Assembly: GCA_023382815.1 (NCBI GenBank)
Contig: JAHDXB010000078.1
Coordinates: 1 to 32,741 of the forward strand
DNA: 32,741 nucleotides
Direction of reading: 5' to 3'
Origin: Myxococcales bacterium
GTDB taxonomy: Bacteria > Myxococcota_A > Polyangia > Haliangiales > Haliangiaceae
The translations under genes and the position numbers were made by a program. Each line of letters begins with the position of its first letter. The first letter of the stretch is position 1. Below are positions 2,808 through 29,221 of this stretch, in pieces. The notes beneath the pieces were generated by a model that saw only the letters and a program-made list of their open reading frames with translations, was not told where the DNA came from and searched no databases.

Positions 2808-2891
2808 GCCCCTGATGATAGGCCACCGGTCGCCTCCGGAGGGTCCGGCTGGTATGCCGGCCCCACCCGTGGCAAGGTGCGCGCCCCCATC

Positions 2892-4295
<1,404 letters not shown>

Positions 4296-20587: not shown

Positions 20588-20794
20588 TCACGGCGCGGGG
20601 ACGCGTCGCACCTCGAGCTCGCCGGACTCCGGGTGGAAGCGGACCACCCAGCGGGTGTCGTCGGCGGCGCGGAAGGAGGCGGTGTGGTCGCTGTTGGACT
20701 GCGCCTCGGTGATCAGGAACTTCAGGTAGTCACGGTTGTCGGCGGCCAGCGCCTTGAGCGCCGCGACGCCGTCGTCATCTCCGACCACGCGCAT
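20588..20794 (-). CDS. Small hypothetical protein (68 aa; MRVVGDDDGVAALKALAADNRDYLKFLITEAQSNSDH...).
   Basis: Short GC3-biased ORF. The upstream in-frame extension listed in the ORF track (to 21133) has non-coding-like composition and low-GC3 codons, so I start at the ATG at 20794. No recognisable domain. Confidence 0.35.
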   Translation of the reverse strand: MRVVGDDDGVAALKALAADNRDYLKFLITEAQSNSDHTASFRAADDTRWVVRFHPESGELEVRRVPAP

Positions 20795-20922: not shown

Positions 20923-22467
20923 ATGCGCACACGCCTCGTCTCGCTCGCCCTCGTCGGCCCGGTCGCGCTGACCCTGGCCGTTCCCCTCGTCGCCTGCGGC
21001 AAGAAGGAGCCGGCCGGCAAGGCCGGGGCCGGCAAGGTCGAGCGCGACGGCGCCGGCAGCGGGTCCGGCAGCGCCTCCGGCAGCGCGGCGCCGGCCGAGC
21101 CGCGGGTGGCGCCGCCGCCGCGGCCGCTGCCACCGCTGGCCGAGTCGCCGCCGGGCGCCACCGGCGCGGTGGCCTGGGTCACGAGCCTCGGCGGCACCCG
21201 GGTCGACATCGTGCGGCGGCTCGCGGTCGGAGGCGACGGCGCGGTGTACGCGGTGGGCGACTTCGAGGAGGCCGCGACCTTCGCCGGCGCCGGCGCGCGC
21301 ACCGCGGCCGGCAAGAGCGACGCCTTCGTCGCCCGGCTCGACGCCAGCGGCGCGGTGAGCTGGGTGACGACGATCGGCGGCAAGCACGAGGAGCGGGGCG
21401 ACGCGGTCGCGGTCGACGACAAGGGCAACGTCGCCGCCACCGGGCTGTTCTCGAGCACGGTCACCGCCGGCGGGTTGAGCGGCAAGGCGACCGGCTCCGA
21501 CGACCTGTTCGTGGTCGGGCTCGACCCCGCCGGCGAGGTGCAGTGGCTGTGGACCGCCGGCGGCCCGGCCTCCGACGCCGCCACCGCCATCGCCGCCGCC
21601 GGCGACGGCGGCTGGATCGTCGCGGTGTCGTTCGGCCAGGAGGTGGCGCTGGGCGCGACCACCGTGACCTCGCGCGGCGGCGACGACGCGGCGCTGGTCA
21701 AGCTCGGGGCCGGCGGCGAGGTCGAGTGGGTGACCCAGCTCGGCGGCGAGTACCCCGACGAGGTGAGCCACGTCGCCGTCGACCCCGCCGGCAACATCTA
21801 CGCCCTCGGCCGCTTCAAGGGCACGATCACGCTCGGCGGCACCACCCACAAGAGCGCCGGCGACGACGACCTGTTCGTGGCCCGCTTCGATCCGGTGGGC
21901 AACCACGTGTGGAGCGTGCGCCTCGGCAACCCGTTCCAGGAGCGGGCGGGCGGGCTCGCCGTCGACCCCGCCGGCCACGTCGTGATCACCGGCTCGTTCG
22001 ACAAGGACCTCGACGTGCTGGGGACGCCGGTGCTGTCGAAGGGCGAGTCCGACGTGTTCGTGGCCCGGCTGTCGCCCGAGGGCAAGCTCCTGTGGGTCAA
22101 GACCTACGGCGGCGAGCGCGCCGACGTCGGGCTCGGCGTCGCCGCCGACGCCGCCGGCAACCTGGTGGTCGTGGGCGGCTTCGAGACCACGATCGACCTC
22201 GGCGGTGGCCCGTTCAAGACCGCCGGCTACATGGACGGCTTCTTCCTCAAGCTCGACGCCGCCGGCACCCACGTGTGGAGCCGGCGCTGGGGGGCCAAGG
22301 ATCAGGACGTCGGGCTGGCGGTGGCCATCGGCCGCGACGGCACGCCCTACGTCTCGGGCGCCTACCGCTTCACGCTCGACCTCGTCCCCGGCGGGCCGAC
22401 CGCGGTCCAGGCCGAGGGCGCGAAGCTGGCCAAGCCCGACGCCTTCGTCGCCCGCCTCGCGCCCTGA
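20923..22467 (+). CDS. Beta-propeller repeat (SBBP-type) lipoprotein.
   Basis: Signal plus lipobox LVACGKK. About 8 repeats of the pattern DAFVARLDASGAVSWVTTIGG / DLFVARFDPVGNHVWSVRLG typical of PF06739. Confidence 0.75.
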   Translation: MRTRLVSLALVGPVALTLAVPLVACGKKEPAGKAGAGKVERDGAGSGSGSASGSAAPAEPRVAPPPRPLPPLAESPPGATGAVAWVTSLGGTRVDIVRRLAVGGDGAVYAVGDFEEAATFAGAGARTAAGKSDAFVARLDASGAVSWVTTIGGKHEERGDAVAVDDKGNVAATGLFSSTVTAGGLSGKATGSDDLFVVGLDPAGEVQWLWTAGGPASDAATAIAAAGDGGWIVAVSFGQEVALGATTVTSRGGDDAALVKLGAGGEVEWVTQLGGEYPDEVSHVAVDPAGNIYALGRFKGTITLGGTTHKSAGDDDLFVARFDPVGNHVWSVRLGNPFQERAGGLAVDPAGHVVITGSFDKDLDVLGTPVLSKGESDVFVARLSPEGKLLWVKTYGGERADVGLGVAADAAGNLVVVGGFETTIDLGGGPFKTAGYMDGFFLKLDAAGTHVWSRRWGAKDQDVGLAVAIGRDGTPYVSGAYRFTLDLVPGGPTAVQAEGAKLAKPDAFVARLAP

Positions 22468-22511: not shown

Positions 22512-23987
22512 ATGACGCATGCCGGCGCCGGCGGTGGCATCATCCCAGCGGGGATGGAGCCGACCGCTTACCCGGTCAACGACTTCGGTCCGGCGATGCG
22601 CGGCATGGTCATCGGCGCGGTCGGCATCCTCCACGTCTTCCTCGCCCAGTTCGCGATCGGCGGCGGGTTCCTGATGACGTACTTCCAGTGGCTGGCCGGG
22701 CGCGGCGTGCCCGACGCTCGCCGCTTCCTCGACAGCTTCTTCAAGTACCTGGTGCTGGTCAGCTTCGTCACCGGCGCCCTGACCGGCGTGGCGATGTGGT
22801 TGACGACGATCCAGGTCGGGCCGCGCACGATCGGGCTCATGGTCGACGAGTTCCACTGGATCTGGGCGATCGAGTGGTGCTGCTTCGCGGTCGAGATCGT
22901 CGCCGGCTACATGTTCCTGCGCTACGGCGAGCGCCTGCCCGACGGCGTGCGCCTGCGCCTGCTCGCCACCTACGCGCTGGCGTCGTTCGGCAGCCTGTTC
23001 TGGATCAACGGCATCCTGTCGTGGCAGCTCACCCCGGGGGCGTGGCTGGCCTCGGGCGACGTGTGGGCCGGCTTCTTCAACCCCAGCTTCTGGCCGTCGC
23101 TGCTCTACCGGGTCGCGGTGTCGAGCACGCTGGGGGCGCTGGCCGCGATCGCCGTCATCAACACGATGGAGCTGGACCGCGCCGCGCGCCACGCCCTCCT
23201 CGCCCGCGCCGCGCGCCTGCTGGTGCCGATGGCGGCGATGCCGGCGCTGGGGCTGTGGTACGTGGCGGTCATCCCCGCCGACAGCCGGGCGTGGCTGACC
23301 GGGGGCAGCGTGGCGATGTCGATGTTCCTGGCGCTGGCCGCCGGGGCGTCGCTGCTGATCGGCGCCTACGCGCTCGTCGGGATCTGGTGGCGGCGCCTGT
23401 ACGTGAGCGGCGCGACCGCGGCGCTCCTGCTGGCGCTGGCGTTCGGCGCCACCGCCGCCGGCGAGTTCGTGCGCGAGGGCGCGCGCAAGCCGTTCACGAT
23501 CCGGCAGGTCCTGTACTCCAACGCCATCGCGCCGGCCGAGGTCGCGCGGCTGCGCGCCGAGGGCTCGGTGGCGCGCGATCCGTACCCGCTGCGCGACGCC
23601 GCGCGCTACCCGACGGCGCAGCTCGCCCTCGGCGCGCGCGTGGTGCGGCTGCAGTGCGCGGCCTGCCACACGATGAAGGGCGCCAACGGCCTGGTCCACC
23701 TCGGCGGCGCCTGGTCGCTCGAGCAGCTCCGCATCGCGATCGCGCGCCTGCAGGAGACCAAGGGCTTCATGCCGCCGTTCGCCGGCCCGGCGACCGAGGT
23801 CGAGGCGGTGGCCCAGCTCATCCGCTGGGAGGCGGCGGGCGCGCCGGCCGCCTGGCCGGTGTCCGACGACCCGACGGCGCTGGCGCAGATCGCGCGCTGG
23901 CTCGACGAGGCTGGCACCGCGCCGGCGCCGGAGCGGCCGCGGCCGCCGGGCGAGGCCGCGGGTGGTGGGCGCGGGGGTGCGCGATGA
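22512..23987 (+). CDS. Cytochrome bd superfamily subunit-I-like (CydA-like) membrane protein fused to a C-terminal c-type cytochrome domain (CxxCH).
   Basis: Parallels to the CydA N-terminal helices ([13 protein letters not shown] vs [32 protein letters not shown] vs [37 protein letters not shown] vs LSALWILVANGWMQ). Heme c motif [11 protein letters not shown] near the C-terminus. The start could be 22512, 22554 or a later Met. Assignment is from memory of CydA sequence. Confidence 0.5.
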   Translation: [491 protein letters not shown]

Positions 23988-24994
23988 GCCTGTTCGCCGA
24001 CCTCGGCGGCCCGGGGGGCTACGTGCTCCTGCTCGTGCTCACCTTCGCCGCCCACGCGCTGCTCGTCGGCTTCGTGCTGGGCGCGGCGGCGTGGGCGACG
24101 GCGCGGGCGCTCGTCGGCGGCGACGATCCGGTGGCGGCGGCGGCCCGCGACTGGCTGCCGTTCGCGCTCGGCGCGGCGATCACCGCCGGGGTGGCGCCGC
24201 TGCTGCTGATCCAGGTCCTCTACCAGCACCGCGTGTACACGGCGACGCTCCTCATGTCGCACCGCTTCATGGCGATCGTGCCGGCGCTCATCGCCGGCTT
24301 CTACCTGCTGTACCTGGGCAAGAGCGTGCGGGCGCAGGCGTGGTCGCGGGCGCGGCGGGGGCTGGTGAGCGGCGCCGCCCTGCTCGCGTTCCTCTTCGTC
24401 GCGTGGTCGTGGATCGAGGAGCACACCCTGGCCGCCGCCGGCGCCGAGACCTGGGTCGCGCACTACCGCGACGGTCGCGTCGTCCACCGCGACCCGGTGA
24501 TCGCCGTCCGTCTGGCGCTGTGGCTGGGGTTGGCGGCGGTGGCGTTCGCGACCGGCGCGGCGTGGCTGGCCGCGGCGCGGGCGGGACGCGGCGAGCTGCG
24601 CCGCCTGGGCGGGCTCGGGCTGACCGGCCTGGCGGTGGCGGCGGCGGCGGCGGTGGGGACGGTCGGCGGGCGCGCCGGCGAGCTGCCGGCGATGGCCACG
24701 CCGTGGCTGGTGCTGGCGGGGAGCGGCGCGGCGGTGACCGCGGCCGGGATGGTCGCGCTCGCCGGCGGGCGCGGGCGAGCGGGGCGACGGCTGGTCACCG
24801 TCGGCGCGGTCGCGCTGTTCCTCGCGGTGGCGGCGCTGCGCGAGGTCGATCGCGCCCACGCCATCGAGTGGCGGGCGACGCTCGACGGCGCCCAGGGCCT
24901 GCCGCTGTTCGTCGTGTTCTTGCTGCTGGCGACCGGCGCGATCGCGTGGTGCGCGCGGCTGGTGCGGCGGCACCTGGACGAGCGCGCCGGCTGA
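23984..24994 (+). CDS. Polytopic integral membrane protein, translationally coupled (ATGA overlap) to the upstream CydA-like cytochrome. It may be that protein's partner subunit.
   Basis: The ATG at 23984 overlaps the TGA at 23985-23987. About 8 hydrophobic helices (LLLVLTFAAHALLVGFVLGAAAW, LPFALGAAITAGVAPLLLIQVLY, and others). No known motif recognised. Confidence 0.5.
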   Translation: MSLFADLGGPGGYVLLLVLTFAAHALLVGFVLGAAAWATARALVGGDDPVAAAARDWLPFALGAAITAGVAPLLLIQVLYQHRVYTATLLMSHRFMAIVPALIAGFYLLYLGKSVRAQAWSRARRGLVSGAALLAFLFVAWSWIEEHTLAAAGAETWVAHYRDGRVVHRDPVIAVRLALWLGLAAVAFATGAAWLAAARAGRGELRRLGGLGLTGLAVAAAAAVGTVGGRAGELPAMATPWLVLAGSGAAVTAAGMVALAGGRGRAGRRLVTVGAVALFLAVAALREVDRAHAIEWRATLDGAQGLPLFVVFLLLATGAIAWCARLVRRHLDERAG

Positions 24995-25035
24995 CGCGCG
25001 GGCCCGCGCCGGCGCCCACGCGCGGCGGGCGTCAG
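24991..25035. terminator. GC-rich imperfect inverted repeat between convergent genes (ctgacgcgcgggcccgcgcc...gcgcggcgggcgtcag). Possible bidirectional terminator hairpin, with no T-tract.
   Basis: Read directly. The outer arms CTGACGC/GCGTCAG pair and the inner arms pair imperfectly. It lies between the stop of 23984..24994 and the stop of the M23 peptidase gene. Confidence 0.25.
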
Positions 25036-26108
25036 CGACAGTGCTCGACGAACTGGCCGTGCACCGGGGCGACCCGCGCCGGCGGCTGACCGTCGACGCA
25101 GGCGTCGTCGAACCACACCGGCAGGCCGGCGCCGCGGAACAGGGTGGGGCCGTCCTGGAGGTGGAGGTGCAGGTGGGGCTCGCTGGTGTTGCCGCTGTTG
25201 CCGGTGAGGCCGAGCCGCTGGCCGGCGGTGACCCGATCGCCGAGCCGCACCGCGACCGAGCCCTGTTGCAGGTGGGCGAGGAGCGCGTGGGCCCCGTCGC
25301 CGAGATCGAGCACGACGTGGTTGCCGGCCTTGGCGCTCGCGTCCATCTTGCCCGGCGGGTTGTCGGGCAGGCCGTTCTCGACGGCGACGACCGTGCCGGC
25401 GGCCGGCGCCAGCACCGGCTGACCCCAGCAGTGGTACTGCTCGTTGCGGGTGCCGTCGCCGGTGTGGGTGCCGCCGTCCTTCCAGATCACGAGGTCGTAG
25501 GCGTGACGCTGGTCGGGGGCGACCACGTGGTAGTTGACCGTGGCGCTGGGTCCGCCCCAGAACACGAACCACTGGCCGTCGAAGGGTAGGCGCAGGCGCG
25601 CGCGCAGCGGGCGGTCGGCGTGGGGGTCGGGCGGCAGCGGCGGCCGGGGCACGAAGGTCAGGCCCGCGAGCTTGCCGGCGTCGTCGAGCGCCATGCTGGC
25701 GGTGACGGTGCCGCTCGCGGTCACGAGGTCGCCGAGGTAGCCGCGCGCGGCGGGCGTGAGGAAGACCGCCTCGGGCCCGCGGGTGACCGGCCCGGCGGCG
25801 GTGAGCTGGGCGCGGACCTGGGTGAGGAGCTCGATCGAGGCCAGCTCGGCGAGCGCGGGCTGGAACCAGGCGTGGAGCTCGGCCAGGTCGCCGTCGAGGA
25901 GGAGGGTCAGCGCCGCGCGGCCCTCGCGCTCGGTGCGGGCCCGGGCCGCGGCGTAGTCCGCGGGCACCGCCGCCGGGGTGCGCGCGGCGGGTGCGGCCGA
26001 CCCGCTCGCCGGCGCCGCGGTGCCGCCGCCGGCGGTCGGCGCCGCGCCCCCGCGGCAGCCGGCGAGGAGGAGGGCGGGGAGCACGGCGAGCGCGAGGCGG
26101 AGCGACAT
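25032..26108 (-). CDS. M23-family metallopeptidase lipoprotein (LytM/lysostaphin-like).
   Basis: Start MSLRLALAVLPALLLAGC (lipobox). M23 motifs HxxxD-like HCWGQP...NHVVLDLGDG and C-terminal HLHLHLQ (HxH). Confidence 0.75.
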   Translation of the reverse strand: MSLRLALAVLPALLLAGCRGGAAPTAGGGTAAPASGSAAPAARTPAAVPADYAAARARTEREGRAALTLLLDGDLAELHAWFQPALAELASIELLTQVRAQLTAAGPVTRGPEAVFLTPAARGYLGDLVTASGTVTASMALDDAGKLAGLTFVPRPPLPPDPHADRPLRARLRLPFDGQWFVFWGGPSATVNYHVVAPDQRHAYDLVIWKDGGTHTGDGTRNEQYHCWGQPVLAPAAGTVVAVENGLPDNPPGKMDASAKAGNHVVLDLGDGAHALLAHLQQGSVAVRLGDRVTAGQRLGLTGNSGNTSEPHLHLHLQDGPTLFRGAGLPVWFDDACVDGQPPARVAPVHGQFVEHCR

Positions 26109-26213: not shown

Positions 26214-26228
26214 ATAGGATGTGTCTAT
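26214..26228. promoter_or_regulatory. Putative OxyR-type operator half-site ATAG-N7-CTAT (ATAGgatgtgtCTAT) overlapping the oxyR leader, with an adjacent CCTAT element.
   Basis: Read directly at 26214-26228, immediately upstream of the oxyR ATG at 26233. The OxyR consensus ATAGnnnnnnnCTAT is established knowledge. Only one clean unit is seen here. Confidence 0.4.
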
Positions 26229-26232
26229 CCTC

Positions 26233-27153
26233 ATGAAGGTCGGCTTCACGCTCCGCCAGCTCGAGTACATGGTCGCGGTCGCCGACCATCGCAGCTTCCG
26301 CCGCGCGGCCGAGGCGTGCATGGTGACCCAGCCGGCGCTGTCGGCGCAGATCGCCCAGCTCGAGGAGACGCTCGGCGTCCAGCTCTTCGAGCGCGACCGT
26401 CGCAAGGTGCTGGTGACCGCGGCCGGCACCGAGATCGTGGCGCGGGCGCGGGCGACGCTGGCCAGCGCGGCTGCCATCGCCGAGGTGGCGCGGACGGCGG
26501 CCCAGCCGCTGTCGGGCACGCTGCGCCTCGGCGTGATCCCCACGATCGCGCCCTACCTCCTGCCGGTGGTGCTGCCGGCGGTACGGGCGGCGTACCCGGA
26601 GCTGCGCCTGATCCTGCGCGAGGAGCAGACCGCCCGTGTCCTCGCCCAGCTCGACGACGGCCGGCTCGACGCCGGGGTGCTGGCGCTGCCGGTGCCGGGC
26701 GATCTGGCGGCGATCCAGCTCTACCGCGAGCACTTCCTCCTGGCGGCGCCGCTGGCCCACGAGCTGGCGCGGCGGGCGCGGGTGCGCGAGGACGACCTGG
26801 CGGGCGAGGACGTGCTCCTGCTGGAGGACGGGCACTGCCTGCGCGATCAGGCGCTGGCGGTGTGCAGCCACGCCGGCTCGCACGAGGTGGCGGAGCTGCG
26901 CGCGACCAGCCTGCCGACGCTGGTGCAGATGGTGGCGAGCGGGCAGGGGGTGACGCTCCTGCCCGAGATGTCGGCCGCGGTCCTGGCCGGCCGGGGCACC
27001 GGCGTGGCCAGCGCGAAGCTGGCGCCGGCGCCGGGCCGCGACGTCGGGCTGGTGTGGCGGATGTCGTCGGCGCGCGGGCGCGAGCTGGGGTTGCTGGCGG
27101 AGGTGATCCGCGCCGAGGCCGCGCGCCACCTCACGGCGCTGCGCAAGCGCTGA
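26233..27153 (+). CDS. oxyR: LysR-family hydrogen-peroxide-sensing transcriptional regulator OxyR.
   Basis: LysR HTH at the N-terminus (LRQLEYMVAVADHRSFRRAAEACMVTQPALSAQIAQLEETLGV). LLLEDGHCLRDQALAVCSHAG reproduces the E. coli OxyR redox pair (C199 in EDGHCLRDQ, second Cys 9 residues later). Here these are Cys202 (codon 26836-26838) and Cys211 (26863-26865). RATSLPTLVQMVASGQGVTLLP matches OxyR RATSLETLRNMVAAGSGITLLP. Confidence 0.9.
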   Translation: MKVGFTLRQLEYMVAVADHRSFRRAAEACMVTQPALSAQIAQLEETLGVQLFERDRRKVLVTAAGTEIVARARATLASAAAIAEVARTAAQPLSGTLRLGVIPTIAPYLLPVVLPAVRAAYPELRLILREEQTARVLAQLDDGRLDAGVLALPVPGDLAAIQLYREHFLLAAPLAHELARRARVREDDLAGEDVLLLEDGHCLRDQALAVCSHAGSHEVAELRATSLPTLVQMVASGQGVTLLPEMSAAVLAGRGTGVASAKLAPAPGRDVGLVWRMSSARGRELGLLAEVIRAEAARHLTALRKR

Positions 27154-28479: not shown

Positions 28480-28503
28480 TGACAGTGTCATATGACAGTG
28501 TCA
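28480..28503. promoter_or_regulatory. Two tandem copies of the perfect 11-bp palindrome TGACAGTGTCA (28480-28490 and 28493-28503), inside a local AT-rich island (28441-28513) in a 74% GC region. Candidate operator/promoter; the first copy supplies a TTGACA -35-like hexamer.
   Basis: Read directly: attgttaTTGACAGTGTCAtaTGACAGTGTCAtggtggatgggtgagc. Located 10 bp upstream of the GTG start of the MerR-like gene. Confidence 0.55.
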
Positions 28504-28513
28504 TGGTGGATGG

Positions 28514-29217
<704 letters not shown>

Positions 29218-29221
<4 letters not shown>

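Follow-up and report, generated by a model that had tools for sequence, protein, structure and literature searches.

A pair of overlapping genes in a 32,741-nucleotide stretch of Myxococcales DNA (GenBank assembly GCA_023382815.1, contig JAHDXB010000078.1, positions 1 to 32,741; hereafter the window) probably encodes an OR-C-type O2 reductase, which would combine a di-heme site of the cytochrome bd type with dependence on cytochrome c for electrons. The first gene, A (22512-23987, forward strand, 491 residues), would contribute a cut-down CydA core, and the second, B (23984-24994, forward strand, 336 residues), a paralogue of that core. Only three enzyme superfamilies are known to carry out the reduction of O2 to water, and the cytochrome bd oxidases are one of them. 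The proposal builds on the observed gene structure, family and fold of the pair, the conservation of its ligands, the logic of its topology and its obligate pairing. A preliminary description, made from the sequence alone, had read A as a CydA-like bd-superfamily protein fused to a c-type heme domain and B as an ATGA-coupled partner and possible non-canonical second subunit, and had placed such fusions in a poorly characterized branch of the superfamily; these points are borne out by the analysis below.

The G+C content of the window is about 77%, and real reading frames were therefore chosen by codon-position G+C. The start codon of B and the stop codon of A share the ATGA at 23984-23987 on the forward strand, as checked in the sequence. 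Translation of A may truly begin at an in-frame ATG at 22554 (Met15), because most homologues, the close ones included, align from the equivalent of Met15 and residues 1-30 are disordered in the structure model. In the profile search suggested in the preliminary description, A matched both families, PF01654 (Cyt_bd_oxida_I) with 47.6 bits against a cut-off of 26.2, residues 38-246 covering profile positions 10-224, and PF13442 (Cytochrome_CBB3) with 27.6 bits against a cut-off of 27 over residues 370-435. More than 1,300 homologues exist, and these and the two profile matches place the observation beyond chance. Residue conservation was assessed in 81 sequences, comprising 80 genome loci and the window; 98 positions of A are invariant, and in view of these and the intact open reading frames a pseudogene or remnant was rejected. 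Between 22300 and 26400, a consensus promoter scan found no promoter-like site, and a terminator scan found one intragenic terminator-like hairpin only, as expected by chance.

The CydA-like membrane core of A (22590-23486, forward strand, residues 27-325) comprises eight transmembrane (TM) helices, delineated from AlphaFold2 (AF2) helices, a positive-inside reading and the PF01654 match, and A has the CydA fold. Residues that form the high-spin site and the proton path of cytochrome bd recur in this core. His41 (22632-22634) aligns by both hhalign and MAFFT with His19 of Escherichia coli CydA, an axial ligand of the heme d/b595 site, and is present in 81/81 sequences; its codon was checked. 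The Glu-containing helix that had been noted as tracking CydA corresponds to TM3 (22863-22898), where Glu121 and Glu128 align with the E. coli channel residues Glu99 and Glu107 and are likewise found in all 81 sequences. Six residues separate the two, as in Geobacillus-type enzymes, and a one-residue deletion between the channel glutamates has been noted for OR-C (Murali et al. 2021, bioRxiv 10.1101/2021.01.16.426971). Ser161 aligns with CydA Ser140. After TM8, an 18-residue segment (23460-23513) matches E. coli CydA 440-457, GWFVAEYGRQPWAIGEVL, and carries Glu322 (equivalent to Glu445; 80/81) and Arg325 (equivalent to Arg448; 81/81), both with checked codons. The local alignment of this motif scores 53, compared with a shuffle mean of 26 (standard deviation 5.5, maximum 55 in 500 shuffles). 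The invariant positions of the family include His41, His115, Glu121, Glu128, Ser161, Arg325, Cys382, Cys385, His386 and Met420.

Owing to the Q-loop of E. coli CydA, global MAFFT and low maximum-accuracy (MAC) hhalign alignments of A are unreliable beyond TM4. When TM5, TM6 and TM7 were each aligned locally with E. coli CydA, the results were no better than shuffles, and the TM8/E445 motif alone stands out. Searches of the PDB by sequence, with A alone and with a 26-sequence A profile, returned no CydA chain and only chains of the cytochrome c6 type; the sequence evidence for homology of A to CydA therefore comes from the Pfam hidden Markov model (HMM) and hhalign.

The features by which CydA oxidizes quinol are missing from A. 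The loop between TM6 and TM7 is only about 13 residues long in the model (residues 254-266), as against about 150 in E. coli CydA, so that A has no Q-loop. The position of the heme b558 ligand His186 is occupied by Tyr199, placed by the NP-x7 register, and across the family by Phe (48 sequences) or Tyr (33); TM5-8 hold no invariant His in the 81 sequences. In the comparison of axial ligands with CydA, suggested in the preliminary description, the His19 equivalent and the Glu322/Arg325 pair are kept, and the b558 ligand His186 is lost. Met269 is conserved in 79/81 sequences, and its candidate equivalence to the b558 ligand Met393 depends on a TM7 alignment no better than shuffles. His115 (22854-22856), six residues before the Glu99 equivalent and present in 81/81 sequences, is without equivalent in the canonical bd oxidases, E. 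coli CydA having Gly93 there; it may serve as an additional heme ligand or belong to the electron path that takes over from heme b558.

In place of the lost quinol site, A carries a putative alternative point of electron entry. Its Arg-rich loops, read from the sequence with the model helices, alternate as for an N-out, eight-helix, C-out protein, which puts the CAACH domain on the periplasmic side. By its sequence this C-terminal part (23532-23912, forward strand, residues 341-467) is a class-I monoheme cytochrome c domain with a predicted covalent heme: it includes the PF13442 match, the A profile finds cytochromes c6 and c551 in the PDB (E = 1e-4 for c6) and AF2 places helices in it. The CAACH attachment motif (Cys382, Cys385, His386; 23655-23669), already pointed out in the preliminary description, is present in 81/81 sequences, and Met420, within FMPPF and conserved in 80/80, is the candidate distal ligand.

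B was described beforehand as a membrane protein of roughly eight TM helices; it is a membrane protein, and its structure model has nine long helices. It contains no CxxCH motif and matches no Pfam or NCBIfam family. Colinear hhalign alignment with A spans B residues 2-305, with E = 0.06 for small profiles and 0.015 for profiles of 76 and 81 sequences. In this alignment, His24 in TM1 (24053-24055, codon checked) takes the position of A His41 and CydA His19, and is conserved in 74/74 loci and 134/137 distant representatives. At the periplasmic end of TM8, R286-E287-V-D-R290 (24839-24853, codons checked) aligns with R321-E322-G-A-R325 of A, the CydA Glu445/Arg448 motif; it is kept in 69/69 loci, and Arg286, Glu287 and Arg290 are each conserved in at least 98% of 141 representatives. 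No Glu of B falls at the channel positions equivalent to E99 and E107. The B profile gave no signal in hhalign against E. coli CydA or CydB (E = 0.2-0.3; CydB 0.29), and a PDB profile search with B returned only spurious matches to G-protein-coupled receptors.

An exhaustive profile search delimits a B family of 1,366 representatives at 50% clustering, most of them 330-410 residues long (range 270-498) among the 150 matches listed. The distant representatives are just 27-45% identical to B of the window; Gln77, Tyr107, Tyr110 and Arg176 are nevertheless found in 142/142 of them. CxxCH occurs in 0/141 newly returned representatives and a relevant Pfam domain in 0/10 scanned. The conserved ligand-equivalent His24 and the R-E-x-x-R motif suggest that B may bind heme. 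The reading in which B is no inert CydB-like scaffold and binds its own heme or hemes through His24 and R286-E287-x-x-R290, at the places where CydA holds its high-spin hemes, the pair in Haliangiales and Kofleriaceae perhaps also being tied to the OxyR peroxide response, we consider speculative and on balance unlikely. If B did bind heme, each half of the pseudo-symmetric dimer of this bd-type enzyme would contain cofactors.

The pairing of A with B is obligate across the loci sampled. With each species represented by a single genome, a scan returned 348 relatives, of which the best 80 loci were analysed; these come from Kofleriaceae, Haliangiales, cultured strains of Polyangium (P. jinanense and P. 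fumosum carry the pair), Planctomycetaceae, Pirellulaceae, Phycisphaerae and one member of Eiseniibacteriota, and a near-identical locus (L006) belongs to a metagenome-assembled genome labelled 'uncultured delta proteobacterium'. In 75/75 loci with enough downstream DNA, in Myxococcota, Planctomycetota and other phyla, A is succeeded by B on the same strand, and an ATGA or GTGA overlap joins the two in 32 of the 75. In the Myxococcota/Planctomycetota clade, subunit I is 60-87% identical across phyla. Median identity to the window over the same loci is 64% for A versus 39% for B, which marks B as fast-evolving relative to A.

Apart from A and B, no neighbour is conserved across phyla, and the genes next to the pair are unrelated in Polyangium, Planctomycetota, Phycisphaerales and Eiseniibacteriota. 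Retention of neighbours in the 80 loci was counted by targeted tblastn. Upstream of A, an SBBP beta-propeller lipoprotein gene (20923-22467, forward strand) is kept in 10/80 loci, close relatives only and at variable distance, and was rejected as part of the unit, as was the M23 peptidase gene downstream (25032-26108, reverse strand; 4/80 loci, variable distance). Further upstream, a 68-residue open reading frame of no family (20588-20794, reverse strand) is kept in 6/80 loci, again close relatives only and at variable distance, and is not part of the unit. The window holds no other respiratory genes.

Murali, Gennis and Hemp (2021; bioRxiv 10.1101/2021.01.16.426971) divide the bd superfamily into qOR, OR-C and OR-N. 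OR-C proteins are described there as having about eight helices, no quinol site and a C-terminal periplasmic heme c extension; OR-C1b is an adjacent eight-helix subunit derived by duplication, and cytochrome c is proposed as the OR-C donor. The Desulfovibrio reference row for OR-C1a in their Table S6 has F at H186 and no M393, keeps H19, E99, E107 and S140, and has '-' at E445 and W441; in Table S7, many OR-C1a proteins with one heme and about 440-490 residues stand beside zero-heme 'hypothetical protein' OR-C1b entries, for example in D. vulgaris DP4, Hydrogenobacter thermophilus and Thermocrinis; and Table S3 records OR-C in Myxococcota and Planctomycetota, with 532 OR-C genes in 24,706 genomes (all bioRxiv 10.1101/2021.01.16.426971). 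A resembles OR-C1a in that it is a CydA homologue with eight TM helices and no quinol site, has an aromatic residue at H186, keeps H19, E99, E107 and S140 and ends in a periplasmic extension with CxxCH. B resembles OR-C1b as an adjacent 'b'-type subunit of apparent CydA descent with neither channel glutamates nor a heme c motif. Because every OR-C feature examined against the published tables is present, and features of quinol-oxidizing CydAB (Q-loop, His186, a partner recognizable as CydB by sequence) are absent, the pair is assigned on this comparison to the OR-C1a/OR-C1b architecture, a known but uncharacterized kind. Some details differ: the A clade keeps a clear E445/R448 motif, unlike the Desulfovibrio row, H126 is replaced by Arg147, and B is modelled with nine helices rather than eight. 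The motif in A, the ligand-equivalent residues in B and the oxyR-ahpCD linkage in one clade described below go slightly beyond the published description.

Compared with canonical CydAB (E. coli 6RKO, Geobacillus thermodenitrificans 5DOQ/5IR6, Mycobacterium smegmatis 7D5I), A lacks the Q-loop, the b558 ligand His186 and TM9 and has gained a fused heme c domain, B is no sequence-recognizable CydB and keeps a CydA-like His and Glu, and no CydX-type small subunit is evident. The CydAA' system (qOR4a/qOR4b) of Caldivirga maquilingensis shares with A-B a subunit II that is a diverged CydA duplicate with an H19-equivalent His and without E99/E107; its CydA, however, still oxidizes quinol, has the b558 ligands and bears no heme c, and the E445 position, conserved in B, is not conserved in its CydA'. 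The authors did not decide whether Caldivirga CydA' is a heme-binding subunit (bioRxiv 10.1101/2021.01.16.426971). The OR-N 'bd-like oxidases' of Nitrospira and relatives are also CydA-like proteins that lack the quinol site and use other electron-entry modules, but they have 10-14 helices, keep H186, carry no fused heme c and lie in larger operons. A purely functional analogy can be drawn with CcoP of the cbb3 oxidases, whose catalytic subunit is unrelated and which likewise has a PF13442-type class-I cytochrome c domain as built-in electron entry. In cbb3, a member of the heme-copper superfamily, this domain admits electrons from the periplasmic cytochrome c pool.

In the reaction we propose, A-B would draw electrons from the periplasmic cytochrome c pool and not from quinol. 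A periplasmic donor would reduce the monoheme domain (CAACH and Met420) that replaces helix 9 in A, and electrons would then pass to the di-heme site in A, whose residues (His41, Glu322/Arg325) are kept in the eight-helix core. There, O2 would be reduced to water with protons taken from the cytoplasm along the path whose residues Glu128, Glu121 and Ser161 are also kept, and the membrane potential would arise from charge separation and not from pumping. B would be a fast-evolving paralogue of A that has the same fold, lacks the channel glutamates and takes the structural role of CydB. Judged by the conserved residues, reduction of O2 with electrons from cytochrome c is the most likely function, and donor, heme content and energy conservation would be as outlined.

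Several observations weigh against this proposal. A targeted literature search found no biochemical study and no purified or assayed OR-C enzyme, later papers just citing the OR-C classification or reusing its HMMs; O2 reduction and the donor are therefore extrapolated from quinol-oxidizing relatives. The OR-C assignment itself comes from features compared with the published description. With heme b558 gone, the fused heme c would have to lie within electron-transfer distance of the di-heme site, and the linker of A (residues 326-338) has a predicted local distance difference test (pLDDT) score below 50. The PF13442 match clears its cut-off by just 0.6 bits, B is only weakly homologous to A when judged by sequence alone (the hhalign E values of 0.015-0.06 given above), and cytochrome c maturation genes and candidate donors are absent from the window.

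The genomic context raises the competing idea that A-B is mainly a defence enzyme against peroxide or reactive oxygen species, a membrane-bound cytochrome c:H2O2 (or low-level O2) reductase that would be part of an OxyR response and not a terminal oxidase of respiration. As had been pointed out, an oxyR-type gene lies close by: the second gene downstream of B (26221-27153, forward strand) encodes a LysR regulator with Pfam HTH_1 and LysR_substrate domains, the signature GHCLRDQALAVC and both predicted redox cysteines (Cys199/Cys208). OxyR PRK11151 is by far its best NCBIfam match, at 287 bits, below the equivalog cut-off of 329. About 28 Kofleriaceae/Haliangiales loci have enough downstream sequence to judge (a count from our tables), and 23 have an oxyR homologue some 1-5 kb past the A stop codon (among them L007-L012, L014, L017, L018, L027, L048, L066, L072 and L087), with ahpC between in 10 and ahpD in 13. 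This is more than twice the retention of any other neighbour (SBBP lipoprotein 10 loci, cyclophilin 8), and in four loci oxyR directly follows B on the same strand. In addition, quinol peroxidase activity can be measured for the cytochrome bd of E. coli (PMC4899803). However, the linkage is confined to one clade: it occurs in 0 Planctomycetota or Polyangium loci, where the neighbours are unrelated housekeeping genes, and inherited synteny alone could account for the pattern. In the window the M23 peptidase gene fills the ahpCD slot, no ahpCD being present; this gene is convergent with A-B, and the pair and oxyR have no promoter region in common. Conservation of the full proton-channel set is also what reduction of O2 to water would lead one to expect. 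We therefore judge a dedicated peroxide reductase improbable, while the oxyR-ahpCD linkage in one clade keeps a role in peroxide defence open.

The pair might instead be a redox module with an activity other than O2 reduction, with hemes in both subunits serving transmembrane or lateral electron transfer or reduction of another small acceptor such as nitric oxide. The putative ligands of B that suggest heme there would be compatible with such a module, but matches of the NrfD type score well below those to bd subunits, all bd-specific O2-site and proton-path residues are invariant in A, and no partner redox genes are conserved nearby; this alternative appears somewhat less probable than peroxide reduction. 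Some database sources label homologues of A 'cytochrome bd ubiquinol oxidase subunit I', which would fit an ordinary quinol-oxidizing CydAB with a chance cytochrome c tail. The missing Q-loop and missing His at the H186 position, the failure of B to match CydB or any Pfam or NCBIfam family and the failure of the A-family profile to find a CydA chain in the PDB by sequence make that label very hard to sustain. Cytochrome c-dependent reduction of O2 by an OR-C-type enzyme thus remains the reading that we favour.

The window has further features of note. A gene at 14359-16900 (reverse strand) encodes an 845-residue protein that matches the shoulder domain of the eukaryotic major vault protein (PF11978, 89 bits) and also a vault repeat (PF17795), and two genes for proteins with VIT and von Willebrand A domains lie near it (10799-13306, reverse strand; about 29240-31743, forward strand). 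These two domains are typical of vault-associated proteins. Directly upstream of the second VIT-von Willebrand A gene, 28496-29221 (forward strand) encodes a MerR-family regulator with a long Asp-Ala repeat (ADADAD...) followed by poly-Ala, and 2886-4295 (forward strand) encodes a DEAD-box helicase with a terminal tail of about 20 glycines and then arginines.

As a match in a genome scan, A-B is confirmatory and not surprising. The OR-C branch is known only from sequence, its feeding by cytochrome c being a prediction, and to it the window adds a very well-conserved clade of Myxococcota and Planctomycetota that includes cultured Polyangium strains, from which the enzyme could be purified and tested. 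Study of A-B could reveal the wiring of a bd-type active site that has no heme b558, could settle if heme is present in the second subunit that arose by duplication, and could test whether some lineages use the enzyme in defence against peroxide.

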